From a virus: DNA of 64,000 nt. Shown piece after piece: positions 14,527 through 58,926 of the stretch. The stretch covers positions 1 through 64,000 of IMG/VR virus record IMGVR_UViG_3300035492_000309; one strand, given 5' to 3'. Every line of letters begins with the position of its first letter. The stretch's first letter is position 1. Position numbers and translations under genes: made by a program. A model generated the notes under the pieces. That model saw nothing but the letters and a program-made list of their open reading frames with translations, searched no databases and was not told where the DNA came from.

Positions 14527-15237
14527 ATGGCTAAGAAAAAGGATCTCACCGGCTTTCATTTCGGTAAATGGACCGTTATAGAGAAAGTCGGAGAAATCCC
14601 TAGGAAAGATTACGCTGAGTCTATTTGGCTTTGTCGATGCGAATGCGGAGTTGAGAAACCCGTTAGGGCTAGACTCCTCTTGCATAAGACCAGCAATAGT
14701 CGCTCCTGTGGATGTGCCAGAGCAGAGACACAACGGATCAACCCTTCCAGACTCAAACACGGATTAAGCAAGAAGCACCCGCTGTATAAAGTTTGGAAAA
14801 CCATGCGGCAGCGCTGCAGCAATCCGAATCACAAGAAATATCACCGCTATGGAGCTAGAGGCATTCGAGTTTGCGAACGATGGGGCGATTTTGAAAACTT
14901 TGTGGAAGACATGGGTCCTTCATACGTTCCAGGATTGACTATCGATCGACGCGATAATGACTTAGGCTATTCCCCTGACAATTGTCGCTGGGTGAGTCAT
15001 CTCATTCAAGCCAATAACACTTCCAAGCAGCAGCGTCATTTAGTCATACTGCCATCACACGGATTTACTGAAGAAGATTGGGCTGCCGGAAAAGAAAACC
15101 CTGTAACATGGGCTATTGTAGAAAAACTACTCGCCAACACAGCTGACGTCCCTGACGACGTTAAGTTGTACAGGTGGGTCGACGAAGACAACGTGGTTTT
15201 GGAATTTACTTGGAGGGAGCATGAAAGAGTATCTTGA
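14527..15237 (+). CDS. free-standing HNH/AP2-type homing-endonuclease-like protein (paralog of 7973-8656)
   Basis: Same motif order as 7973-8656: GFHFGKWTV...W.CRCECG...SCGC; [37 protein letters not shown]...[21 protein letters not shown]. Overlaps the thyA start by 17 nt. Confidence 0.5.
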
Positions 15238-16336
15238 TCTATTGAGGCATGTCCGGTCCAATGGCGTTTTCAAAGAAGACAGGACTGGAACAGGAACGTA
15301 CAGTGTTTTTGGCTATCAGATGAGATTCGATCTGAGCGGTGGGCAGTTCCCGCTGGTCACGACCAAGAAATGCCACCTGAAGTCGATCATCCATGAACTG
15401 CTGTGGTTCCTTCAGGGTGAGACCAACATCCGTTACCTGAAAGAGCACGGTGTCTCGATCTGGGATGAGTGGGTCAAGCCGGGTACTGAAGAATATCGAC
15501 CAGCTACGCTTCTTGAGGTTAATGCCCGTATCAAAGCGGCAGGACTGCAAGAAGAATTCATCGAGTGGGTCAAGCCGTATTGGCTTTCCGAGTATAAGGA
15601 AGGCTATGAAATGATCCAAGGCAAAACCATGCATGTCAAGGATGGTCCGGACATCCCAGGTACTATTTACTGGGCACATCCTGATTATGACGCCATGGCA
15701 TTTGCGTGGGCTGAAGAACGTGGTGTCTCTACCAAAACGCTCATCGCCGGTGAACTCGGTCCAGTCTATGGTTCGCAATGGCGCAGCTGGCCTGATGTTC
15801 GGGAGAGCTCTAAGGGGGTTAACCTCACCATCGCTGAGCGCTGCGAAGAAGCCAACCAATACGGCGATTACTACCTGCGCCTGGGCAAGGCCTATTCACA
15901 TCCATCGGGTGAAGAGCGCCGTAAAGCGCTGGAAGCACTTTCCAGTGAACTCGACGCCATGGGCATCCCTAAGGAACGTCGCATCCCGTCAGTGAATGCA
16001 AGCACTATCGATCAGATCAGTAATCTGATCGAGATGCTGAAGAAGAACCCAGACAGCCGTCGTCTGATCGTCTCGGCCTGGAACCCTGCCCTGGTGGATC
16101 AGATGGCATTGCCACCCTGCCATGCCCTGTTCCAGTTCTACTCCACTGAACTGACTCGAATGGAGCGTGAGCGGATCATTCAGCCGGGTTGGGATGGCTG
16201 CTACACGGAATACTCGACATGGTTGTGCGATCTGGATGCCGATATCCAAGGCGATGAGCTGGGTAAACTGATCGACGCTAAGCTCGATGAGCTGGGTGTT
16301 CCTAAGCGTCGTTTGTCGTGCCAGCTGTACCAGCGT
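15221..16336 (+). CDS. thyA: thymidylate synthase, exon 1 (aa 1-372)
   Basis: [58 protein letters not shown]. Homology stops at QR and the frame then runs into a stop at 16361-16363. Confidence 0.9.
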
Positions 16337-17434
16337 AAACACCACTGCGCCCTTGCAGCGTAAGCTGCATTGAATAACCTCTCTAAAACGGGAAACTCTC
16401 CTAGGAGACAATCCGTTGCTAAAACCGTAGTTCGTTTCCTTTACCAGAGGAGATGAACATGTATTTCGTTTACGTAATCACTGATTTGAATACTGGAAGT
16501 TACTACGTCGGCAGTACTGGAGAATTGGATAAACGTCTTGATCGTCACGAGCGTGAACTCAGGACAGGTAATCACCACAATCTGATTCTTCAGCAACTGT
16601 ACGCCGCCGGCCATGAAATGCGGGTTTCAACCCAGGAGTTCCCAACTCGGGAAGAAGCCTACGCATGCGAGGACCACCTCATTCGTCAAAGTACGTTGAA
16701 CCGCCGCTGTGTAAATATAGGTTCTACCGCCATCGGCGGCGATAACCTAACACGGCATCCACTCCGCGAAGAGATTATCAAGCGGATAGGTGATGCGTCA
16801 CGATCGAGAATGAGTAGCTTAGGGGAAGAAGAACGCTGTCGCATGTACGGGAAGTCGGGCGATACCAATCCAATGTTTGGTAGAGTACATTCACCAGAAG
16901 CTAGGCAGCGCATCTCCGAGGCTAATCGTGGTAATAAACGAGGTTTGGGCAGGAAGTTATCTGAAGAACATCGTCAGAAAATCTCTTTAATGGCTTCCAA
17001 GCGTATCGGGGATGCAAATCCCTTCTACGGCAAGTCCCACTCCTTAGAAACTCGCCTAAAGTTGTCAGAAGCCCGTAAAGGGAATGTCCCACCGAACACA
17101 CTCAGTGTGATCATCGATGGAGTCATTTACCCTTCGCTGGCCGAGGCAGGCCGGCAATTGGGCATTCCAGTCCCAACGATCCATTATCGGATCAAGAGCA
17201 AGAACCCTAAATACAGTGGATACGAACTACGGTAAAGCCCAACGACTAACGAAAGGCGCCTCATTGATGAGTCAGGCGAACCGAGTAGTGTAGGGTCCAA
17301 GTGGACTCGAAATGGGAGGACTCCACACGGAAGTGGAGTGTGATATAGTCTAAACTGCATGGTGACATGCAGCGGTCGAGAACTAGCCAATCTCGACGGG
17401 TCAGGTCTAACGAACCTGATTGAAGGTCTGCGTG
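16337..17434 (+). mobile_element. group I intron (td-like, IA2-type) carrying a GIY-YIG homing endonuclease ORF
   Basis: 5' splice site after U (CAGCGU|), last intron base G. 16383-16424 and 17342-17373 resemble conserved core segments of the T4 td intron as I remember it (AAUCCGUUGCUAAAA; GAUAUAGUCU; GCAUGGUGACAUGCAGC). Joining the exons restores ..QLYQR|[18 protein letters not shown].. Confidence 0.85.
16453..17235 (+). CDS. intron-encoded GIY-YIG homing endonuclease (I-TevI-like)
   Basis: FVYVITD..GSYYVGSTGELDKRLDRH (GIY-YIG). Two NUMOD3-like repeats (NPMFGRVHSPEARQRISEANRGN; NPFYGKSHSLETRLKLSEARKGN). C-terminal HTH (SLAEAGRQLGIPVPTIHYRIKS). AGAGGAG RBS. Confidence 0.9.
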   Translation: MNMYFVYVITDLNTGSYYVGSTGELDKRLDRHERELRTGNHHNLILQQLYAAGHEMRVSTQEFPTREEAYACEDHLIRQSTLNRRCVNIGSTAIGGDNLTRHPLREEIIKRIGDASRSRMSSLGEEERCRMYGKSGDTNPMFGRVHSPEARQRISEANRGNKRGLGRKLSEEHRQKISLMASKRIGDANPFYGKSHSLETRLKLSEARKGNVPPNTLSVIIDGVIYPSLAEAGRQLGIPVPTIHYRIKSKNPKYSGYELR

Positions 17435-29497: not shown

Positions 29498-30127
29498 ATG
29501 GAATTTCTACCTAAGGGTTGGGAAGTGCGCGTCCTGCCCAAATTCAAAGTCTACGAACTGAGCCTGAATAAAGATCAGTACGTGGTCTTGGCTATCGATG
29601 TCCCGCCGGAGTTTCGTTTCGAAGGCAAAGAGATTGGAGTCAACACCTATCGGGCCAATGCTATCGTGCGTGGCGCAGTGAAGTTTGTTTCGGCTACATT
29701 GCCTGACTTCGAACGGCGGCGCGGTGATACCACCCTTGATGCTCGCTTAACTGTCAAGGGTGAGTACCGGGTACAGGGCAGTGAGGATGACAGTAAGTTT
29801 GTTTGTATCATGGCCAACGACCCACTGGAGAAACTCTACGGTGCTCGTAACGTAGCTTTGGCGCCCGGCGAAGAAGTGACCTTCGATTTCTCTGAACTTG
29901 AACGCAATGTGTTCATTATCGAAGGGAGTGTGGACATTGGACTGACCACTCATTCAGCGTTCAAACACCTCAAGCTAACCAAACCCCAAGAATACACATT
30001 CATCAACAACAGTGAAGAAAATGCCTTCTTGGTGTATATGTATGAAGTGACGAAGGAGGAGGTCAAGTCCCTCTATCCTGAAGTGTCACCTGAGGCCATG
30101 GCCAGCGTACAAATTCTACAGGGGTGA
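29498..30127 (+). CDS. hypothetical protein, possibly a cupin-like beta-barrel
   Basis: Beta-rich sequence; starts 2 nt after the upstream stop; its stop overlaps the RBS of the next gene. Confidence 0.6.
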   Translation: MEFLPKGWEVRVLPKFKVYELSLNKDQYVVLAIDVPPEFRFEGKEIGVNTYRANAIVRGAVKFVSATLPDFERRRGDTTLDARLTVKGEYRVQGSEDDSKFVCIMANDPLEKLYGARNVALAPGEEVTFDFSELERNVFIIEGSVDIGLTTHSAFKHLKLTKPQEYTFINNSEENAFLVYMYEVTKEEVKSLYPEVSPEAMASVQILQG

Positions 30128-30135
30128 GGAGCTAC

Positions 30136-30933
30136 ATGAACATGTTCAAACCAACCAACACCAACATGGTCTGGGGGAACCGGATCATCATGACGTCGGC
30201 GGCAGTTGCGCCGATCGTTGCGTTCTTTCAGTTCAATCCAGTTCTGGTGATAGCAGCGCTCGTGCTGTGGCAAGTCCTGAACGTAGTAGGCATCAGCGTC
30301 GGAGTCCACCGGTACTATTCGCACAAGGCCTTTGAGACCCATCGGTTCTGGCAGTGGGTGATGTCGTACTGTGCCATGGTCTCACTGGTCGGGCCGCCCT
30401 GCATCTGGGCTGACACCCACATGACCCACCACCGCAAGGCGGATACGCCAGAAGACCCTTATCGTAAATTGCAGCTGACCGGTGAATCACCGTTCGACCA
30501 CAAGACCACTGTCAGCAAGCGCTTTCTGCTGAGCATGATCTCACGTGATCCGCTGCATCAACTGACGATCAAGTACTACTGGCTCTACGTGGCATCCTAC
30601 GTCGTGGGCATGACTGCGCTGGGTATGTTGGCAGGTTTGAACGCGTTCGAGGCTGTCTTCTGGCTATGGATGGTGCCGGCAGGTATGTCCCAACTGACCC
30701 TGCGTTTCGTCCTCTGGACTGGTCACGTCAAGGGGCTGGGTTATCAGACCTACGACAATGGCGACCTCAGCAACAACTGGTGGTTCGCTTCTCTGATCGC
30801 AGGTGGCGAAGGCTGGCACAACAACCACCACAAACGTCCCAAGCGCGCTAAGCTGGGCGAGAAGTGGTGGGAGTTCGATCCAGGTTACTGGTTCATCTGC
30901 CTGATTCGTTCCAAGAAGACTGAGGCTGCGTAA
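30136..30933 (+). CDS. membrane fatty-acid desaturase, Delta9 (acyl-CoA/acyl-lipid) type, copy 1
   Basis: Three His boxes in the canonical order and context: GVHRYYSHKAF, THMTHHRKADTPEDPY, GEGWHNNHHKRP. Hydrophobic helices flank them. GAGGAG RBS. Confidence 0.8.
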   Translation: MNMFKPTNTNMVWGNRIIMTSAAVAPIVAFFQFNPVLVIAALVLWQVLNVVGISVGVHRYYSHKAFETHRFWQWVMSYCAMVSLVGPPCIWADTHMTHHRKADTPEDPYRKLQLTGESPFDHKTTVSKRFLLSMISRDPLHQLTIKYYWLYVASYVVGMTALGMLAGLNAFEAVFWLWMVPAGMSQLTLRFVLWTGHVKGLGYQTYDNGDLSNNWWFASLIAGGEGWHNNHHKRPKRAKLGEKWWEFDPGYWFICLIRSKKTEAA

Positions 30934-31676
30934 TGCGCCTGCTCCAGTCTGACCACCGACAGGCTGCGGCGATGACCATCCTTGCGATGGTCATCTCTGT
31001 CGGGGCGCTTTTTATGCCGAACGCATGGTGGCTCTTAGGTTCGTTCTGCATGTTCCAGGTATACTGGATTGCAGGACTCTCGGCCGGGAACCATCGATAC
31101 TTCACTCATCGCTCATTTGAGACCACGCCGTTTTGGCGTGAGTTTATGATCTGGGCGACCTGCACCAGTTTATCTGGCCATCCCGGATTCTACGCGATCA
31201 TTCATCTGGAGCATCACCTGAAGTCCGATACGCCAGAAGACCCGCACCACTATTACGCTCAAAGCGGCATGGTGTCGTTTAAGAACATCAACGTCAAGAT
31301 GACTCCGGGCATGAAACGGCGCTTCATTTCCGACCCGATCATGATGCGCACCTACCGGTACTACTTCGCGTATTCGTTCGCAGCCATTGCCCTGCTGTCG
31401 TTGATCTCACTGGAAGCGCTCATTTACCTGTGGGCCCTGCCAGTGGTGGCGATGCAGTTTGCCCGCAAATACGTGACCATCAAATGGATTCACGAGTTCG
31501 GTTACGTGTCTTACGAGACAGGTGAGGGCTCGAAGAACTCCAAGCTACTGGGCTGGCTATTCGGTGGCGAGGGACTGCACAACAACCACCACAAGTTCCC
31601 TAACCGGTGGAACTTTGCCATCAAGAAGTGGGAAGTCGATCCCACCTCCTGGTTTGTGAGGATGATCAAGAAATGA
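30933..31676 (+). CDS. membrane fatty-acid desaturase, Delta9 type, copy 2
   Basis: GNHRYFTHRSF, HLEHHLKSDTPEDPH, GEGLHNNHHKFP. TAATG overlap with copy 1. Confidence 0.8.
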   Translation: MRLLQSDHRQAAAMTILAMVISVGALFMPNAWWLLGSFCMFQVYWIAGLSAGNHRYFTHRSFETTPFWREFMIWATCTSLSGHPGFYAIIHLEHHLKSDTPEDPHHYYAQSGMVSFKNINVKMTPGMKRRFISDPIMMRTYRYYFAYSFAAIALLSLISLEALIYLWALPVVAMQFARKYVTIKWIHEFGYVSYETGEGSKNSKLLGWLFGGEGLHNNHHKFPNRWNFAIKKWEVDPTSWFVRMIKK

Positions 31677-36871: not shown

Positions 36872-37318
36872 ATGATCCGTATCTTACTGATCATCTTGGG
36901 TCTTTGCATTTATATCCCAAATACAAATGCCGAGACCATCGAACTCACGTCCATGAATGTGGTCAGGGTTTATGATGGTGACACCATCACCGTCAATCTA
37001 CCGGGTCAGTTGCCCGTCTTTGGTGCAGCACTCGGGGTACGGATCAGGGATGTCAACACCCCAGAGTTAACCAGCACCTGTTCCACAGCTGCCTTGAAAA
37101 CTGCTGAGAAGTTAAAAGCTCAGCAGGCTCGGCAATTAGTGGATGATCTGGTCAGTAAAGGACGCGTCATTGTCCTGTCTGACCTAGGTCGGGACAAGTA
37201 CTTCAGGTTGTTGGCGCGCGTATCGGTAGATGGTACCGATGTGGCCACCCGGCTAATTGAAAGCGGGCTGGCTGACCATTACACCGGTGGGACTAAGGTC
37301 TCCTGGTGCGGTCGGTAA
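36872..37318 (+). CDS. secreted staphylococcal-nuclease (SNase/thermonuclease)-like nuclease
   Basis: Signal peptide MIRILLIILGLCIYIPNTNA; VYDGDTITV, VRIRDVNTPE, GRDKYFRLLARV..DG.DV...LIESGLA. Confidence 0.75.
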   Translation: MIRILLIILGLCIYIPNTNAETIELTSMNVVRVYDGDTITVNLPGQLPVFGAALGVRIRDVNTPELTSTCSTAALKTAEKLKAQQARQLVDDLVSKGRVIVLSDLGRDKYFRLLARVSVDGTDVATRLIESGLADHYTGGTKVSWCGR

Positions 37319-40820: not shown

Positions 40821-41153
40821 ATGGACACACCAACCGTCATCAAATGGCTCCACTCCCCCAGTGGACGTAGTAAGCGCACAGAAGAAGTGCAAGACGGCTG
40901 TTTTGTGTTAGAGCATGATGCCACTGGACGTTTCTATCTAGGGGAGAGCGTCCATGTCAGCAAAGAGGTTGACAAACAACTTTCACAACTGGCGTTAGGG
41001 AAACACCCGCACAAACTGCTCAACGAGCTCTATGCACGCGATTCGGCCATTCGGGTATACGAGTACCCCATGAAGGCCAAGAAAGCGCGTAGCGGGCTTC
41101 TCAAAGAGCTTAAAGCCACTGCCAGCACCGATTACCTTTGCCTTAATCCTTAA
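40821..41153 (+). CDS. stand-alone GIY-YIG nuclease-domain protein (110 aa)
   Basis: GCFVLEHDATGRFYLGESVHVSKEVDKQLSQL..GKHPHKLLNE...IRVYEY fits a GIY...YIG...R...H..N core. No DNA-binding extension. Confidence 0.45.
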   Translation: MDTPTVIKWLHSPSGRSKRTEEVQDGCFVLEHDATGRFYLGESVHVSKEVDKQLSQLALGKHPHKLLNELYARDSAIRVYEYPMKAKKARSGLLKELKATASTDYLCLNP

Positions 41154-41170
41154 CGGGGGAATTCATCATC

Positions 41171-41650
41171 ATGACCGATCTTAATAATCTGGTCCGCCTG
41201 TATTTCGATGCCTGCCGCACCTATGTAGCGAGTCGTTCCGACAAGGTACACATCTTCGTGCGCGTCACCGACCATTTCATCGAGAAGCACCCTGTCCTCA
41301 AGAATGTCATCACCACCATCGATGGGATAGCATTTGTTATCCTCAACATCGGCTATGATGCCGCCCGTGACCTGGAGCACCATGAGCACGGGTTCAGCTT
41401 CATGGCCGCGTTCAAAGGCGAGAAGCACCGTCTGGACATCTGCTACGGGGATGTGATCGGCATGGGCGAACCCGGCCAGGAGTTTCTCTACGACTTCGCT
41501 ACGATTCCGATCACCGGTATCACAGGCGGTGGCATGGCATTGCGCCCCATGACGCACGATCAGCTGTTTGCGGCTGAACAGGAGCGTCAGGAAGTCGAGG
41601 CAGCTGCTCATAGGCTCAGGAAACGTCCGAAGCTGGTAGCGGTGAAATAA
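41171..41650 (+). CDS. SspB-like ClpXP specificity-enhancing adaptor
   Basis: Core FVILNIGYDAARDLEHHEHGFSFMAAFKGEKHRLDICYGDVIGM aligns with E. coli SspB IVLNIAPRAVGNLELANDEVRFNARFGGIPRQVSVPLAAVLAI. C-terminus RKRPKLVAVK compares with the SspB ClpX-binding tail GGRPALRVVK. Confidence 0.55.
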   Translation: MTDLNNLVRLYFDACRTYVASRSDKVHIFVRVTDHFIEKHPVLKNVITTIDGIAFVILNIGYDAARDLEHHEHGFSFMAAFKGEKHRLDICYGDVIGMGEPGQEFLYDFATIPITGITGGGMALRPMTHDQLFAAEQERQEVEAAAHRLRKRPKLVAVK

Positions 41651-41659
41651 GGGTCGGTC

Positions 41660-42142
41660 ATGAACGAGATGTTGTCGCTGGAAGATAAAGAGTATTTCGA
41701 AGCATACCTGACTCACGGCAGTCAGGTTTTACTCCCGGTCGCCCATAGCGAAGGGTTGAGTAAAGAAGAAATCGAACAGACCATCACCACGGCGGTAATT
41801 CCAGTCTACGGCCAGTGGCCAAAGCGCGATACCAGCCAGTATCCCAACCTCATTGATCTGTTCGATCGTCGTAAACCGTTCGTTCTGGGTGAGCTGCATG
41901 CCAAGGCGCTGGTAAAAGTAGAAGAAAGGTGGGTATTAGATGCCACAGTTCACTACCATGCCGGTGACCTGGTCGACACCAGTGCATTGATGATGATGCA
42001 GTTGATGGTCAACACCGTCGACCGCGACCCTAACGACCCGACACAAGGGCGTAAGCTCATTGGAATCTCCAAAGCCGTGGTAGTGCCTAATCCGGCATTG
42101 CCAATCGGACATTCCCAAGAGCGTCCCAGTTACCAGGAGTAA
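41660..42142 (+). CDS. hypothetical protein
   Basis: Clean ORF between the SspB-like gene and the ligase. Confidence 0.65.
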   Translation: MNEMLSLEDKEYFEAYLTHGSQVLLPVAHSEGLSKEEIEQTITTAVIPVYGQWPKRDTSQYPNLIDLFDRRKPFVLGELHAKALVKVEERWVLDATVHYHAGDLVDTSALMMMQLMVNTVDRDPNDPTQGRKLIGISKAVVVPNPALPIGHSQERPSYQE

Positions 42143-42146
42143 CCTA

Positions 42147-44138
42147 ATGGACAATCGTATCGAGGCGCTACGTGCTGAGATTCTGCGTCTGAATGATCTG
42201 TATTACAACCGCGGTGAGTCAGATGTCTCCGATGAGGTCTATGACTCGCTCAAGCGAGAACTGCGTGAGCTGGAAGGTGAGACCGACGATCCTCATTCGC
42301 CGCTCAATGTGGTGGGTGCAGCTTCGGATGGCGGCTTCGAGAAGGTTCGTCACCTGTCGCCTATGCTCAGTTTGGAAAACGCCTATAACGAAGAGGAGTT
42401 GACCGACTGGACCATGGGTCTTGGGGTACCTGCGCTGGCCGAGCTGCAATACAAGTTCGACGGGGCAAGCCTTAATCTCATCTACCGCAACAACAAGCTG
42501 ATCCATGCAGTCACCCGAGGCAATGGCATCGAAGGCGATGACATCACGGACAATGCGGTGTTCTTTGAAGGCGTGCCGCAGGAGTTGATCGGCAAGCCCA
42601 TCAAGGGCCATCTGGAAATCCGGGGTGAAGTGATCGTTCCACACAGTCACTTCCATAAAGCCAACGAACGCCGTGCAGCCGCTGGCAAACCGACCTATGC
42701 CAACCCCCGCAACATGGTGGCTGGTATCATGCGCCGTAAAGATGGAGAAACCATCCAAGGTCTGGGACTTAAGTTCATTGCGTACGAAGCCATCGTTCAC
42801 GAGGACAATGACTGGCTGGACAAGACCTTCCGTCAGGTGATGGATGATCTGGCCTGGCCGTTCGAGACCGCCAATCATGTCTGGCGTGGCTTGACCGGCA
42901 GCCTGGATAAGATCATGGATCGAATCTCGGCGGTGGCTGCCAGTCGTGACAGCATCGGCTTTGACATCGATGGCCTTGTCCTTAAGATCACCGATCCTAA
43001 GGTCCGCTTGAAACTCGGCTTTCGTTCCACGTCTCCTCGTTGGGCAGTGGCGTACAAGTTCGAAGCACAGACAGCCACCAGTGTACTTGAGCGCGTGGAC
43101 ATTCAGGTCGGCCGTACCGGTGTCCTGACGCCAGTGGCAAAGATCAAGCCGGTCAAACTCTGTGGTGTGACGGTCAGTAGCGTGACCCTGCACAACTTCG
43201 AGGAGATCAAGCGTCTCGACCTGCGTCTGCTGGATACGGTGGTCGTTTCTCGTCGAGGGGATGTCATCCCTAAGATCGAGAGCGTGGTCACCAACCTGCG
43301 CACAGATGAACACGGTCTGATTCATACCCCGACCGAATGTCCGGCCTGTGGCGGTGAGGTGAAGAAATCAGAAGCCAGTGGGGTCGAGCTGTACTGCACC
43401 AACTCTAAGCTGTGTCCTGCACAGATCATCAACAGCATGGTGTATTTCGTCAGCCGTGATGGTATCGATGTCAAACACCTAGGGCCTGCTGCCGTCGAAT
43501 CACTGATCGTCTCCGGGGTGTTGGGTTCATTCAGTTCGCTGTTCTATCTGGATGAGCAAGACTTCTATGCCGCCGGTATTGGTGAATCCATGACCGATAA
43601 GATCATGGGCAGTATCCAGCGTTGTAAGAAACTGCCGTTCTACAAGGTCTTGCGTGCAGTAGGTATCGCAGAAGTAGGTGATTCGACCGCCAGGGCATTG
43701 GCCGTGCGATTCCCCAACTTCGAACAACTCAGCACTGCGACCGCTGAGATGTTGCAGGAAGTCGATGACGTCGGACCTACCGTAGCAGCCTCTGTGATCG
43801 AAGCGTTTACCCAAGGCAGCAACGATCTGCTCGCGCTGGATACCATCCTGACCTACACCGATGAGATCATCAAGAAAGCAGAGGTTCAGGACCTGGCCGG
43901 TAAAACGGTAGTCGTCACGGGTTCTGACTTCGACGGACTCAACCGCAAAGCCATGGAAGAGTCGGTAATTTCTCGCGGCGGTAAACTGGTCAAGTCGGTT
44001 AGCAAGAAGGTCGACATCATCTTTGCGGGCACTGGCGCCGGACCAGATAAAATCAAGCAGGCCAAAGAGCTTGGTTTCTTCGAAGACGGGCTGATGCTCG
44101 TCAATCCCAACACCACTACACGCATTACCAAGGAGTAG
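42147..44138 (+). CDS. ligA: NAD-dependent DNA ligase
   Basis: Ia domain (YY....SDVSDEVYDSL..EL..LE), adenylation KFDG (LQYKFDGASLNLIY), OB fold, Zn finger CPACGGEV....YCTN..CPAQ, HhH region, BRCT (LAGKTVVVTGS). Confidence 0.95.
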   Translation: MDNRIEALRAEILRLNDLYYNRGESDVSDEVYDSLKRELRELEGETDDPHSPLNVVGAASDGGFEKVRHLSPMLSLENAYNEEELTDWTMGLGVPALAELQYKFDGASLNLIYRNNKLIHAVTRGNGIEGDDITDNAVFFEGVPQELIGKPIKGHLEIRGEVIVPHSHFHKANERRAAAGKPTYANPRNMVAGIMRRKDGETIQGLGLKFIAYEAIVHEDNDWLDKTFRQVMDDLAWPFETANHVWRGLTGSLDKIMDRISAVAASRDSIGFDIDGLVLKITDPKVRLKLGFRSTSPRWAVAYKFEAQTATSVLERVDIQVGRTGVLTPVAKIKPVKLCGVTVSSVTLHNFEEIKRLDLRLLDTVVVSRRGDVIPKIESVVTNLRTDEHGLIHTPTECPACGGEVKKSEASGVELYCTNSKLCPAQIINSMVYFVSRDGIDVKHLGPAAVESLIVSGVLGSFSSLFYLDEQDFYAAGIGESMTDKIMGSIQRCKKLPFYKVLRAVGIAEVGDSTARALAVRFPNFEQLSTATAEMLQEVDDVGPTVAASVIEAFTQGSNDLLALDTILTYTDEIIKKAEVQDLAGKTVVVTGSDFDGLNRKAMEESVISRGGKLVKSVSKKVDIIFAGTGAGPDKIKQAKELGFFEDGLMLVNPNTTTRITKE

Positions 44139-44599: not shown

Positions 44600-45193
44600 A
44601 TGACTGAACAACTGACCCGTGTGTCGCCTTACCTGACGGCATTCCATGACGTCAAAGCCAAACAAGCCGATGGTTTGGCGGTCGACATCAGTGCGCATGG
44701 TCGTGCTGGTTTCGGTAACGAATTCTTCCGGGTTCGTTATGGGCAGGACCTGATTTCCAAAACCACACTGCGTTTCGACCTCGGCAAACTGGGGTCTCAG
44801 TCCGAAGCGATCGAGCAATACATCGCCGCGATTAAAAGCGATCGGTTCCCATGGACTGAGCTGCCAGCAGATTTCGAACTGCCGGTCATTCCGATGATTG
44901 CCAAGATCGACGAACAAACTCACCTGGACGAATCGCTGGAAACAGCTAAGGTATTGTTCGAAGCACTGCAGCCCTTCCCGCGGCGTGTAGCCTTCATGCG
45001 CCAGTGGAACGCTTCCGGTAAAGGCCAAGGCATTGAGTTGATTCTGGTCTTGGAAGACGAAGGCGTTCTGGACGTCCTAGAACTCTCGGTGAACTTCTAT
45101 CGGCTGACCCAACAGCAGCTGATGCTGCGCAACCTGCAACGACTGGCAAACAACCCGAACGCCAACCAGCAGAAAGAAGTACCTACCGAATGA
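44600..45193 (+). CDS. hypothetical protein
   Basis: ATG 44600 one nt after the upstream stop; ATGA overlap with the DHFR gene. Confidence 0.65.
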   Translation: MTEQLTRVSPYLTAFHDVKAKQADGLAVDISAHGRAGFGNEFFRVRYGQDLISKTTLRFDLGKLGSQSEAIEQYIAAIKSDRFPWTELPADFELPVIPMIAKIDEQTHLDESLETAKVLFEALQPFPRRVAFMRQWNASGKGQGIELILVLEDEGVLDVLELSVNFYRLTQQQLMLRNLQRLANNPNANQQKEVPTE

Positions 45194-45711
45194 AAATATC
45201 TGTAATCTTCGCCCAGAATACAGCCGGCGCTATCGGGGCATTGGGTCCACATCCGTTACCATGGCACTATCCTGAAGACCTGAAACGCTTCAAAGAGCTG
45301 ACCAAGGATAAACCGATTATCATGGGTAGCAATACCTTTGACAGTCTGCCGAATTTGCTGCCCGGACGGTATCACTACGTGGTCACTGGTAGCAAAGGGT
45401 TGGTGCGGTTAGGGCCGATGGATCGGGTGCAGTTCGTCAACTCGCTGGAGCAGGCACTGGCGTTTGCCATGCCGACGACTGACGAAGTGTTCATCATCGG
45501 TGGCGCTGGTTTGATCGATGCCGGTATCAAGATCGCCGACACGGTTTATCGTACCGTCGTCCTGGGTGATCATGAGATCAATGGTCGTCCGGCTCTGGTG
45601 GAGCAACCTGGACTTCAAGCCCCGTACTGGGGGCGTTACGAGCAAACAGACCGCGTTCTGATCGGTGCGTCGCTGTTCTTCGAAACGTACGAAGCCATCA
45701 CGACAGAATAA
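45190..45711 (+). CDS. folA: dihydrofolate reductase
   Basis: ISVIFAQ...AIG....LPWHYPEDLKRFKELT..KPIIMGSNTFDSLP..LPGR...V.....EVFIIGGAGL. Confidence 0.85.
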   Translation: MKISVIFAQNTAGAIGALGPHPLPWHYPEDLKRFKELTKDKPIIMGSNTFDSLPNLLPGRYHYVVTGSKGLVRLGPMDRVQFVNSLEQALAFAMPTTDEVFIIGGAGLIDAGIKIADTVYRTVVLGDHEINGRPALVEQPGLQAPYWGRYEQTDRVLIGASLFFETYEAITTE

Positions 45712-45713
45712 AG

Positions 45714-45752
45714 GGAGGGGCTTCGGCCCCTCCTTCTCTTTATTTTTTTTTT
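45714..45752 (+). terminator. canonical intrinsic terminator after the DHFR gene
   Basis: GGAGGGGC-TTCG-GCCCCTCC followed by TTCTCTTTATTTTTTTTTT. Confidence 0.85.
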
Positions 45753-55833: not shown

Positions 55834-58800
55834 TTATTCGGTCAGAGATTGATCGTTGTCAAAGACATCGATTGGCAACTGTTGCTTGAGCTGTTCTATG
55901 AAGACTTCAGCATCAGCCAAGGTCGCATCGGGATTCTCCACCAGACTTTCCAGAGAGGCTTCCAGATCATCAGGAGCCTGCACCCCGAGGATAGCTTCCA
56001 CTTGGGATTTCGACCACTGCATGATGTCCTTGGAACGGGTCGAGATATTGCCTTCGGTTCCAGTGTCTAGGAAAATCTCCCAAACATGACAGCGGTGCTT
56101 CTGCCCGATACGGTCAACTCGAGCGATCGTCTGCGTCCGCTCGTAGTCACGGAACGGGGCGTTAGTGAAGATCTCGGTGTTGGCCATGGTCAACGGCACA
56201 GCAGTCGACAGGCTTTTGAAGGTAGCGATCAGCGGGTTGGCATCCGGGTCTTGTTCGAACTTCTTGACGATGTTGGTCAAGTCCTTGTTGGTGTCGCCAT
56301 AGACCAGCAAGGGTTTGTACCCGGCGTTACTCAGCAAGCCATCCAGCTCTTTCACAACTTCAACGTAGCTGGTGAAGATCACTGTCTTACTGGCCGCATT
56401 GTCGATGATGGTATCGAGCGGCATGTTTGGCAACATGTCCAGATGGCACTGAATACGCATCCGACCCAACACCTGGGACAAAGCCTCACCCATGACCTTA
56501 AGATCAACGTACTTGATGATTGCCCGGACATTCAAGAACGGCTTACGGAAACGCTCAGGCAGGGACGGTATAATCTTCTTCAGTTCGTACCGGTTGCAGA
56601 ACATCACCAGGTCTTTCATGGTGACTGGGTCGTACCCTTTACGGATCGTGGCAATGGCACGGTTGTATTCTGCAAACTCAGTCTTGGCGGCGTTGTTACT
56701 GCCAAGTGATTGAGCATGTAAATCCATGCACTGGGCATAGAGCGCTTCGTATTCCTTCATGCCTTTGCGGTAGAACTCCAGACGCTCTTCGATGAACTTG
56801 CTCATCTTGTCGCGCACACTGGTCAGAGTGTAGTCCTGACCATTTTTGATTGTGATCTTCTCCTCGTGATAGTCCACGCCAGGGGTTTCGATGTCCTGTT
56901 TCGGGACTTTAAAGGACACGATCCCGATGCGATTGGCCAGAATCTCCAGCGCACGCTTGGCCTCTTTACCGAACATCTTGCGGAAGGAGGCTTCGACATC
57001 CGGCGTGAAATCGCGACAGACCGTCTTGAGCAAGGTGATGGCTTCCGAACCCATGGCCTTGAACGGTGTGCCGGAGGCATGAACAACATCGCGTGCTTTA
57101 ACGACCTGAACCAGCTCGACAAGATAATTGGTACGGGCCGACTGTTCGTTGAAGTTGTGCGATTCATCGATCGCCACGAAGACCTGACCAAAGTTTCCTT
57201 TGTTGGCTTTGGCGAACGCCAGGAACTTCTCCAGGTAGTCATAATGGACAATGTAGTGCTTCTTACCGGCCACCGGATCAAGACCGCTCAGGCTGTGCCA
57301 GAACTCAGGGGTGTTCTTAAACAACATGTTAATGGTCTTGACCCAGACATCGAGTACCGCGTTCTTCGGTACCACCAAGATATTGGTGTCGGCTTTGAGC
57401 ACATGTCCTAAGGCGTAATTGGTAATGGTGTTGTGAGTCACGATGAAGTCATCGGTGACATACAGGTGTTTCGGATGATCCACCATGATGCACTGGGCTT
57501 CTTCCTGACCAACCAACTTGATCGACTTAACGCGAAGCTTCAGACCTTCCGCATACTGGCCATCGTCCTTACAGCGAGCTTTCTTGCGCCCCATACGGAA
57601 CAGTTCAGATTGCTTCTTGTAGCGGATGTTGACGTTATATGCCACCTTACCTTCGCGAACTTCGCCGTTGTACGTATATCGAGTACGTTTCTCGGCGATA
57701 CGTGCGATACCGCCAAGACTACGGACCAGGTACTGCACATCGAGAGCAAGCTGCTCACTGGTCGTACTGAACGACACTACGGCATGGTCATTGATGGTCC
57801 CATCTGTGTCCAGCAGGCCCTGGAGAACGCTCAGGCGCTGCTTACGAGAACCGTTCTTATAGATCTCTGGGACGAACTTCTCAAACGAGTATTTCCCGAA
57901 CAGGCCAAGGCCACGAATGATGTCGGTCAGAGCATTCTTCTTATGACGCTCGTCGGTGATGATGTAATCATACTCGCTAACGTGCTTCATGGAGGTGAAT
58001 TCAGGAAGGACTTTACGAACTTCGTCAAGAACGTCCTCATCTGCGCAGCTGAAACGCACATTGTAGCGAAGACCGCCGTCGCCGATCAGGGCACCGATCA
58101 GGTAAGGGTCGGCTGGAAGGTCGATGTCCGGACCATCCTCGGCTTCAATCAGTGGGATATACAGACGTTGGCGATTCTTCTCGAGAAGACGTTTCATCTC
58201 GAGAGTGTCGCGAGTAGCCCAACGATGAGGGTCTCGAACGGTCCCGTCGAAAGACTCCCACAGATGTTCTCCGCAGGCGCGGGTCTTTCGACCATCCCAG
58301 AATTCTACTTCATAGATGTCCTTGACACCCTGAGGGAATACACCGACAACAGACACAACAGAACCATCGGGAGCAACGATCTGGGAACCGACGTGTATAT
58401 CGCCCATCGTGGCCCAACCACCTGGTACCTTGATTTTAGCATCGAGAGGCTGTGCCTTGCCGCCACCTGCAGCGACATCCATCAACATTCCCTGAAGGGA
58501 ATATTCGAACGTGGTCCGATCATACTCACGTAAAAAATTAAGTTGATGGGGAAATAGTGTGATGTTAAGGTCTGCCAACTGCTTGTAATCAAGACGTGGT
58601 GCAAACCCCGTCACGCCGATATTGCGTAGCCATGTGCTGTGAGTCAATTCCTCAGCCACGCGAGTGAGCAACCTCCGTCCGACATAGGTACGCCGCGATT
58701 GGATCAGTTGTTCAATGATGTACAGTACTTCGATGGCATAGAACTTAGGAAACTTCACCGATGATCTGGACACCGATGTGAACAGATTGTTGTTGATTTT

Positions 58801-58926
58801 GCTGGTTTTCCAGTGGTTGTAAATATCTCTGGAAAAACGCAAACCGGGGATTCCGTTGACTATAATGTGAGAATCCGTCTCTTTGACAGAGACCAATCCC
58901 AGCATGCGCGAAAAACTGGCGTACAT
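55834..58926 (-). CDS. SNF2/DEAD-like helicase precursor interrupted by an intein
   Basis: Motif I is split: AAGGGK|intein|TITNYAL. Also DESH (VFVAIDESHNF), helicase C domain and motif VI ARVDRIGQK. Single 1030-aa ORF. Confidence 0.9.
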   Translation of the reverse strand: MYASFSRMLGLVSVKETDSHIIVNGIPGLRFSRDIYNHWKTSKINNNLFTSVSRSSVKFPKFYAIEVLYIIEQLIQSRRTYVGRRLLTRVAEELTHSTWLRNIGVTGFAPRLDYKQLADLNITLFPHQLNFLREYDRTTFEYSLQGMLMDVAAGGGKAQPLDAKIKVPGGWATMGDIHVGSQIVAPDGSVVSVVGVFPQGVKDIYEVEFWDGRKTRACGEHLWESFDGTVRDPHRWATRDTLEMKRLLEKNRQRLYIPLIEAEDGPDIDLPADPYLIGALIGDGGLRYNVRFSCADEDVLDEVRKVLPEFTSMKHVSEYDYIITDERHKKNALTDIIRGLGLFGKYSFEKFVPEIYKNGSRKQRLSVLQGLLDTDGTINDHAVVSFSTTSEQLALDVQYLVRSLGGIARIAEKRTRYTYNGEVREGKVAYNVNIRYKKQSELFRMGRKKARCKDDGQYAEGLKLRVKSIKLVGQEEAQCIMVDHPKHLYVTDDFIVTHNTITNYALGHVLKADTNILVVPKNAVLDVWVKTINMLFKNTPEFWHSLSGLDPVAGKKHYIVHYDYLEKFLAFAKANKGNFGQVFVAIDESHNFNEQSARTNYLVELVQVVKARDVVHASGTPFKAMGSEAITLLKTVCRDFTPDVEASFRKMFGKEAKRALEILANRIGIVSFKVPKQDIETPGVDYHEEKITIKNGQDYTLTSVRDKMSKFIEERLEFYRKGMKEYEALYAQCMDLHAQSLGSNNAAKTEFAEYNRAIATIRKGYDPVTMKDLVMFCNRYELKKIIPSLPERFRKPFLNVRAIIKYVDLKVMGEALSQVLGRMRIQCHLDMLPNMPLDTIIDNAASKTVIFTSYVEVVKELDGLLSNAGYKPLLVYGDTNKDLTNIVKKFEQDPDANPLIATFKSLSTAVPLTMANTEIFTNAPFRDYERTQTIARVDRIGQKHRCHVWEIFLDTGTEGNISTRSKDIMQWSKSQVEAILGVQAPDDLEASLESLVENPDATLADAEVFIEQLKQQLPIDVFDNDQSLTE
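57430..58455 (-). mobile_element. intein (342 aa, aa 158-499) with LAGLIDADG homing endonuclease; class 3 signature
   Basis: Starts AQPLDAKIKV.. and ends ..FIVTHN|T. LAGLIDADG motifs YLIGALIGDGGL and VLQGLLDTDGTI. Block B GEHLW (Trp B:12), block F AQCIMVD (Cys at F:4), block G THN (Thr G:5). Confidence 0.85.

Follow-up and report, generated by a model that had tools for sequence, protein, structure and literature searches.

A divergent SspB-like protein with a putative ClpX-docking tail encoded by a jumbo phage

The stretch of viral DNA analysed here, 64,000 nucleotides long (positions 1 to 64,000 of the IMG/VR record IMGVR_UViG_3300035492_000309) and called the window below, contains a gene whose product resembles SspB, an adaptor of the ClpXP protease. 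The locus raises the question of whether a phage supplies its own adaptor to the ClpXP of its host and, if so, what such an adaptor would do during infection. The gene described in the initial annotation was found as such in the open reading frame (ORF) list and the sequence: it encoded a protein of 159 residues followed by a stop codon, beginning with MTDLNN and ending with RKRPKLVAVK (Table 1). Homologues with 97, 85, and 56% identity had the same length. The window protein belonged to the SspB superfamily by fold and by profile, with a homology that was remote but significant, and it probably acts on host ClpXP as a divergent, phage-lineage member of this adaptor superfamily.

When the window protein was compared as a single sequence, PF04386 (SspB) was the sole Pfam family with an E value below 0.01 (E = 9.3e-4, 19.7 bits, residues 56–112), and PHROG 8945, annotated as 'stringent starvation protein SspB-like', was matched over residues 10–98 (E = 3.7e-4). 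BLASTP against the SspB translated from E. coli MG1655 gave 21% identity in the best segment with an E value of 0.058, and a single-sequence phmmer search against the PDB returned noise and no SspB. These last two results speak for a chance resemblance or a relic, that is, a fast-evolving accessory gene with no ClpXP-related function and a coincidental match in its tail. With a profile of four sequences, HMMER placed five SspB chains at the top of the PDB matches, with E values of about 0.13.

A word-indexed search of 5.8 billion proteins gave three homologues only. The homologue with 56% identity (P0003) had been named 'stringent starvation protein B' by JGI, and the close clade of the window protein consisted of four IMG/VR contigs. 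An exhaustive profile search of 1.84 billion representatives gave 33 proteins at E ≤ 1e-3. P0024 was left out of these matches as a repetitive false positive, and the other relatives were mostly 143–184 residues long (range 126–248). In the resulting family alignment of 35 proteins, identity to the window protein was 21–36% outside the close clade. Eighteen of the 35 proteins matched Pfam SspB individually, the best with an E value of 4.8e-12, and a distant member (P0032) matched the E. coli SspB chains in the PDB with an E value of 1.4e-6.

For a comparison of profile with profile, a cellular SspB profile was built from 76 distinct Enterobacterales SspB sequences of reference genomes. The contig scan was aimed at diverse cellular SspB sequences including those of Pseudomonas, and its bait included a Pseudomonas-like sequence; Enterobacterales alone were returned, and only the returned loci entered the analysis. 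The 17 closest family members were aligned with the 76 cellular sequences by hhalign after the 12 C-terminal residues had been cut from every sequence. The two cores matched with a probability of 97% and an E value of 8.7e-11 over 79 columns, in which residues 13–98 of the window protein corresponded to residues 15–93 of E. coli SspB. Since the match was significant with the C-terminal residues removed, the core homology was independent of the tail.

The structure of the window protein was predicted by AlphaFold2 (AF2) from the 35-sequence alignment with no templates, and gave a mean predicted local distance difference test (pLDDT) score of 91.3 and a predicted template modelling (pTM) score of 0.80. 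A run with four sequences (pLDDT 57) was discarded. When the model was searched against the PDB with Foldseek, ranks 1–19 were all occupied by SspB, with E values down to 6.8e-5, probabilities of 0.85–1.00, and target-normalised TM scores of 0.42–0.61. These structures were from H. influenzae, E. coli (including the ClpXP delivery complex 8ET3), Agrobacterium, and Caulobacter, and the first match outside SspB had an E value of 0.28 and a probability of 0.08. The model had the SspB fold, in which a helix at the N-terminus is packed against a small beta core. The SspB-like identity proposed in the initial annotation was thus upheld by profile searches (PF04386 and hhalign) and by fold searches, which returned SspB and nothing else.

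The 43-residue alignment to E. coli SspB given in the initial annotation was recovered in the same register by BLASTP, by HMMER against the PDB SspB chains, and by hhalign. It was weak as a pairwise alignment (11 of 43 residues identical by hand count) and significant only with profiles. The motifs of the beta core were L58-N59-I60...A64...L68 and F77-x-A79-x-F81-x-G83. Residues L58, N59, I60, A64, L68, F77, A79, F81, and G83 were equivalent to L53, N54, I55, A59, L63, F72, A74, F76, and G78 of E. coli SspB, and all nine were invariant cellular positions in a column-by-column comparison. The likeness to cellular SspB (E. coli b3228, H. influenzae, P. aeruginosa; PF04386) comprised the fold, the homologous core with its LNI...A...L and F.A.F.G skeleton, the size (159 residues compared with 165), and a C-terminal docking peptide of the RPxLxxVK type.

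The tail also resembled that of cellular SspB, as the initial annotation had proposed. Judged by sequence comparison, the window protein ends in an apparent ClpX-binding (XB) peptide of the kind that cellular SspB docks on ClpX's N-terminal zinc-binding domain. Five of the eight residues of RPKLVAVK (R, P, L, V, and K) were shared with RPALRVVK, and 77 of 80 Enterobacterales sspB loci ended in GRP[AST]LR[VI][VI]K. The window tail retained the Leu, the Val before the last residue, and the Lys at the end, and had Val-Ala where [RKTS]-Val is found in most tails. Residues L161 and V164 of E. coli SspB are reportedly critical contacts of the XB peptide. In cellular SspB, a short C-terminal segment of each subunit binds the N-domain of ClpX (PMC9963277), and changing the eight-residue tail of P. 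aeruginosa SspB, R128–K135, to alanines weakens ClpX binding (PMC13251409). The XBR peptide of SspB competes at ClpX's zinc-binding domain, for which the binding consensus is LKxh (PMC7226468).

The tail was conserved within the family as well. Within the close clade, RPKLVAVK did not vary even at 56% identity. Among the 35 diverged family members, 24 ended exactly in [LFMIV]-x-[VILA]-[VI]-[KR], and in four others the motif lay only a few residues before the C-terminus. From composition, its occurrence by chance at a fixed position would have a probability of 0.0016. The C-terminal peptide was the best-conserved feature outside the core across the family. Because it was kept while the spacer ahead of it could not be aligned between family members, the tail is a separately conserved module. 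Five members (P0017, P0018, P0023, P0027, and P0032) lacked the RPxLxVVK ending and had 'NVVxL...' followed by a Lys/Arg-rich end; these endings may be the alpha-proteobacterial SspB-alpha type of ClpX-binding tail.

The core and the tail were joined by a family-specific extension and a predicted helical spacer. The close clade showed no variation in the motifs of the extension (residues 100–128), which also recurred in the wider family alignment. In the spacer, residues E136, Q137, E138, R139, V142, A146, and L149 were invariant in the close clade (56% overall identity). The last ~9 residues of the protein were less confident in the model (pLDDT 66). Within the extension, GGGMALRP (residues 119–126, window 41525–41548) lay ~30 residues before the tail. 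The pattern G-G-x-x-hydrophobic-L-R-P recurred across the phage family, and no equivalent was found in the E. coli SspB sequence. The L-R-P-M of this region was loosely like the LKxh zinc-binding-domain consensus, and the model placed the motif in a beta-strand.

A coincidental resemblance was also suggested by the divergence of the gene, which lay at the fast-diverging end of its block. The nearest cultured relative was the Pseudomonas aeruginosa phage pPa_SNUABM_DT01 (265 kb; hereafter DT01), with 78% amino acid identity in the helicase and 65.5% in the NAD-dependent DNA ligase (LigA). Identity to DT01 was 28% for the SspB-like gene, compared with 65% for LigA, 70% for the GIY-YIG gene, and 53% for DHFR, and identity to a 270-kb relative was 56% for the SspB-like gene and 81% for LigA. 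The other small accessory ORFs of the block diverged alike, with identities to DT01 and the 270-kb relative of 34 and 54% (g160) and 32 and 58% (g198), and an exceptionally fast evolution of the SspB-like gene was rejected on these grounds: the gene is fast-evolving, and not unusually so. In addition, the profile–profile, fold, and transitive evidence all converged on SspB, and the tail pattern was far more frequent in the family than chance would give and invariant where the flanking spacer varied. Chance resemblance was effectively excluded, and a relic with no ClpXP-related function would be a far-fetched explanation.

Acting as an adaptor, the folded domain, probably a dimer formed through the helix of residues 4–22, would bind a short peptide of a substrate in its groove. 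The two tails would dock on the N-domains of host ClpX and tether the substrate, which would then be passed to the pore, so that its degradation by ClpXP would be raised during infection. Its substrate might be ssrA-tagged polypeptides or some other protein of the host or the phage. Among the 25 listed of the 26 Pfam families matched by the 86 ORFs of the window, there was no Clp, Lon, or HslU family; by this list the 64-kb window has neither a protease nor an unfoldase of its own, and within it the partner must therefore be the host enzyme.

Several observations weigh against this adaptor reading. The Pfam score of the window protein was below the gathering score of 27. All five NCBIfam matches were to SspB equivalog models (PRK11798), with 14–20 bits against cut-offs of 135–319; the best was NF008769 with 20.5 against 135, whereas E. 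coli SspB, as a control, scored 322 bits. Taken as a single sequence, the window protein fell short of every curated Pfam and NCBIfam threshold, and by none of them does it count as an equivalog of cellular SspB. Two of the last four positions of the tail deviated (VAVK compared with RVVK). Where the N-A-R-F motif has its arginine, the window protein and its two closest homologues had alanine (Ala80), and nine of 17 family members had Arg. Ala80 tentatively corresponds to the R73 position of iLID, for which the numbering in the publication differs by one from the index of the PDB chain. The 'flexible linker' of the initial annotation did not hold in the model, in which strands at residues 112–115 and 120–123 and a 22-residue helix at residues 129–150 were predicted with a block pLDDT of 88–93; the E. 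coli SspB linker, which is acidic, is different. A confident isolated helix is compatible with a flexible tether, and the spacer, with ~40 residues, was similar in length to the cellular SspB linker. Finally, the host is only presumed, from DT01 as the closest phage in culture, to be a gammaproteobacterium resembling Pseudomonas.

The lost arginine also bears on what the groove would recognise. In iLID, R73Q lowers the affinity for the ssrA peptide ~6- to 10-fold, and A58 of H. influenzae SspB is the other affinity-tuning position (PMC7147098). A58 mapped to the retained A64 of the window protein, and N73 of E. coli SspB was replaced by Met (M78). The helix-1 RAFYEW signature was gone, with only A14 (E. 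coli A16) and the aromatic Y18 (E. coli W20) corresponding. In SspB, sequence conservation clusters at the dimer interface and in the ssrA groove (PMC9963277), and given this distribution the changes in the groove and helix 1 suggest that ssrA recognition by the window protein is altered or weakened. Compared with cellular SspB, the window protein lacked both the RAFYEW signature and the NARF arginine, and had extra conserved motifs, P41, G93-D94-x-I-G97, and GGxxALRP; the loss of the former two together with the gain of the latter suggests a changed or weakened ssrA specificity. Cellular SspB has a long, acidic, Pro-rich, disordered linker, while the window protein has a predicted helical spacer.

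Because the arginine for ssrA affinity was lost, core motifs of its own were gained, and a conserved, predicted helical spacer took the place of a floppy linker, the window protein might be a retargeted adaptor and not a copy of the host ssrA adaptor. Such a protein would pass to the ClpXP of its host either a specific host protein, for example a defence or stress-regulatory protein, or a timed phage protein. This specialised form of delivery was considered possible, although doubtful.

The tail might also act by occupancy. Highly expressed XB tails could fill ClpX's N-domains and block the host adaptors (SspB and RssB-type) and the N-domain-dependent substrates, with nothing delivered, and the effect would be to shield phage proteins from ClpXP or to freeze host stress responses. 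[quoted passage not shown] A precedent for action at a Clp adaptor site is Gp53 of the Bacillus phage SPO1, an adaptor-like modulator of ClpCP (PMC6873191). There, as proposed here, a phage protein engages a host Clp unfoldase where adaptors dock, and thereby reshapes host proteolysis. However, Gp53 is an unrelated protein that targets ClpC in Gram-positive hosts, and it is experimentally supported, unlike the phage SspB-like proteins. Titration would need the tail alone, yet the groove skeleton and the family-specific core motifs were kept across members with 21–36% identity, which argues that the folded domain binds something. Moreover, delivery and competition can coexist. A pure decoy was therefore regarded as unlikely, and delivery to host ClpXP remained the preferred reading.

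SspB-like proteins are already known from phages. A tblastn search with E. coli SspB matched at least 78 phage records, mostly of Pseudomonas, Erwinia, Ralstonia, and Xanthomonas jumbo phages, and annotations as SspB or 'SspB-like ClpXP adaptor' were already present in many of these; the window protein was not found by this search. When the window protein itself was the tblastn query, Psa21 was the sole match among 50,697 phage records. A fold search of BFVD listed PhiPA3 gp270, Psa21, Phabio, Noxifer, 201phi2-1 (two proteins), PhiEaH1, Rebecca, phiA8-29, and others. Two such proteins have been described in the literature: gp18 of the Pseudomonas phage pf16, which has been proposed from docking to compete for RseA (PMC5587285), and gp039 of the Erwinia jumbo phage RAY, a cytoplasmic 'SspB-like ClpXP adaptor' (bioRxiv 10.1101/2023.02.24.529968). 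Both are phage-encoded SspB-fold proteins of 128–150 residues, and their function was assigned from homology only, as for the window protein. The published phage SspB homologues have 30–53% identity to E. coli SspB and are much nearer to it than the window protein. Literature searches found no experimental test of the function of any phage SspB. The translated tails of pf16 gp18 (KKPTLRVVK), RAY gp039 (KKPTLTVVK), and the PA7 homologue (PKLTVIKGGKK) were all of the XB type. The PhiKZ-like phages (PA7 871-1779; P0022 and P0033) had long SspB-fold proteins of 238–302 residues with an extended middle of ~110–170 residues, and in these the XB-like LT[LV]I[QK] was followed by GGK[KA], so that the motif was not terminal.

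The proposal for pf16 gp18 leads to a further explanation for the window protein, in which it would bind a peptide of the host, for instance the cytoplasmic RseA/MucA (anti-sigma factor) fragment or ssrA-tagged proteins, compete with host SspB, and block the RpoE/AlgU envelope-stress response. This would agree with the finding that in P. aeruginosa the AlgU–MucA complex is brought to ClpX by host SspB (PMC13251409). For sequestration, a ClpX-docking tail that is intact and strongly conserved would be needless and even counter-productive, and the pf16 idea is itself from modelling only and concerns a protein that carries a tail of this type. Sequestration was thus judged improbable compared with delivery to host ClpXP by a divergent adaptor.

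The positional orthologue in DT01 was PA10_00271 (168 residues), annotated as 'putative ClpXP protease specificity-enhancing factor (PRK11798)'. It aligned with the window protein over the full length with 28% identity (E = 4e-13) and ended in RERPSLKVVK, a tail of the same XB type. The tail of P. aeruginosa SspB is presumably RPSLKVVK, the same as that of DT01. PA10_00271 was closer to cellular SspB than the window protein was, with an E value of 3e-9 to E. coli SspB and an NCBIfam score of 44 bits, and it had a Pro-rich linker where the window protein has a predicted helix. The gene order of DT01 was as in the window, with the GIY-YIG gene, the SspB-like gene, a small ORF, and LigA, and with DHFR further on. 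With the window gene, a class of phage SspB-like adaptors that already carries annotations gains a new and unusually divergent member. Because such genes have been annotated and published before, the finding is less novel than the initial annotation implied.

The window phage is a jumbo phage of about 254 kb. A protein with 97% identity was encoded on a 253,653-bp NCBI contig (GCA_031993525.1) and a 253,747-bp IMG/VR contig with the same gene order, and the homologues with 56% identity were on a syntenic 269,790-bp IMG/VR contig and on JGI contigs, likewise syntenic. PhiKZ-like phages came next after DT01, with ~36–41% identity. A megablast search of the locus against phages gave no match.

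Cellular sspB is located beside sspA, while the window gene is phage-encoded and located beside DNA-metabolism genes (Table 1). The GIY-YIG gene and the NAD-dependent ligase named as neighbours in the initial annotation were confirmed, the former by its phrog_13862 match and the annotation of DT01. The DT01 counterpart of the upstream gene, PA10_00270, is annotated as a GIY-YIG homing endonuclease; the 110-residue gene had no Pfam match of its own. Its stop codon was at 41151–41153, and the Shine-Dalgarno-like GGGGGA of the SspB-like gene began two bases after it. The 160-residue gene downstream had no match in Pfam, PHROG, or PADLOC. The SspB-like gene was part of a tightly packed, co-directional string of genes at ~39.7–45.7 kb with LigA and DHFR, which was closed by a terminator-like hairpin. 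This arrangement suggests co-expression, and the SspB-like gene is probably expressed together with the endonuclease, ligase, and DHFR genes of DNA metabolism.

Table 1. Positions of the SspB-like gene, its predicted parts, and neighbouring features in the window
Feature	Position	Strand	Basis
Coding sequence of SspB-like protein	41171..41650	+	ORF list and sequence; AF2 model pLDDT 91.3
N-terminal helix, residues 4–22, equivalent to SspB helix 1 (dimer interface in cellular SspB), predicted	41180..41236	+	Model DSSP; hhalign
Beta core, residues 25–99, homologous to SspB substrate-binding domain	41243..41467	+	Pfam, PDB alignment, Foldseek
Family-specific extension, residues 100–128	41468..41554	+	P101, D108, and G-G-x-x-A-L-R-P (119–126); two predicted strands
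Predicted helical spacer, residues 129–150	41555..41620	+	Model DSSP, block pLDDT 88–91
Putative XB-type ClpX N-domain docking tail, R152-P-K-L-V-A-V-K159	41624..41647	+	Sequence comparison
Shine-Dalgarno-like GGGGGA	41155..41160	+	10 nt 5' of ATG; read from the sequence
GIY-YIG-like endonuclease gene, 110 residues, directly upstream	40821..41153	+	phrog_13862, E = 9.9e-30; 70% identity to DT01 PA10_00270
160-residue gene, function unassigned	41660..42142	+	9 nt downstream of SspB-like stop; always adjoining in relatives including DT01
NAD-dependent DNA ligase (LigA)	42147..44138	+	Pfam domains on orthologue and window protein; 65.5% identity to DT01 ligase
DHFR gene	45190-45711		Co-directional gene string
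Intrinsic-terminator-like hairpin, strong, bidirectional	45712..45735	+	10-pair stem with 7 G-C, then T-rich tail; directly after DHFR

An antisense ORF of 188 residues (41150–41716, minus strand) had no support and was treated as a shadow ORF. PADLOC gave no matches, the Rfam and tRNA/tmRNA scans of the window found nothing, and a sigma-70 promoter scan was at background level. A gene of the staphylococcal nuclease family (PF00565, E = 2.6e-8) was located ~4 kb upstream of the SspB-like gene in the same orientation (36872–37318, plus strand).

Other genes of the window were recorded as separate observations. Two adjoining fatty-acid desaturase genes at 30124–30933 and 30933–31676, both on the plus strand, matched PF00487 above the gathering score (E = 2.2e-18 and 2.7e-14) and are unusual auxiliary metabolic genes for a phage. 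A superfamily 2 (SF2) helicase of 1030 residues (55834–58926, minus strand) contained a LAGLIDADG_3 domain at residues 364–419 (E = 1.4e-11) and matched the DT01 helicase in two pieces with 67% of the query covered and 78% identity. The domain and the two-piece match suggest an intein or a homing-endonuclease insertion. The PHROG match of a 380-residue thymidylate synthase (15221–16363, plus strand) looked interrupted. The next gene (16453–17235, plus strand) encoded a full-length I-TevI-like homing endonuclease with a GIY-YIG domain, two NUMOD3 motifs, and an I-TevI DNA-binding domain, an arrangement that recalls the td/I-TevI pairing of T4.

Phage SspB-like genes are widespread in jumbo phages and are annotated as such. 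The divergent clade described here, in which the XB tail stays constant while the core drifts, is useful for picking candidates for testing, and it does not constitute a new category. Should such phage proteins truly bring selected proteins to the host's ClpXP, they would serve as natural tools of targeted degradation and as a mechanism of host takeover or counter-defence. If the window protein is a retargeted adaptor, it would be a natural viral 'degrader' built on an SspB chassis.

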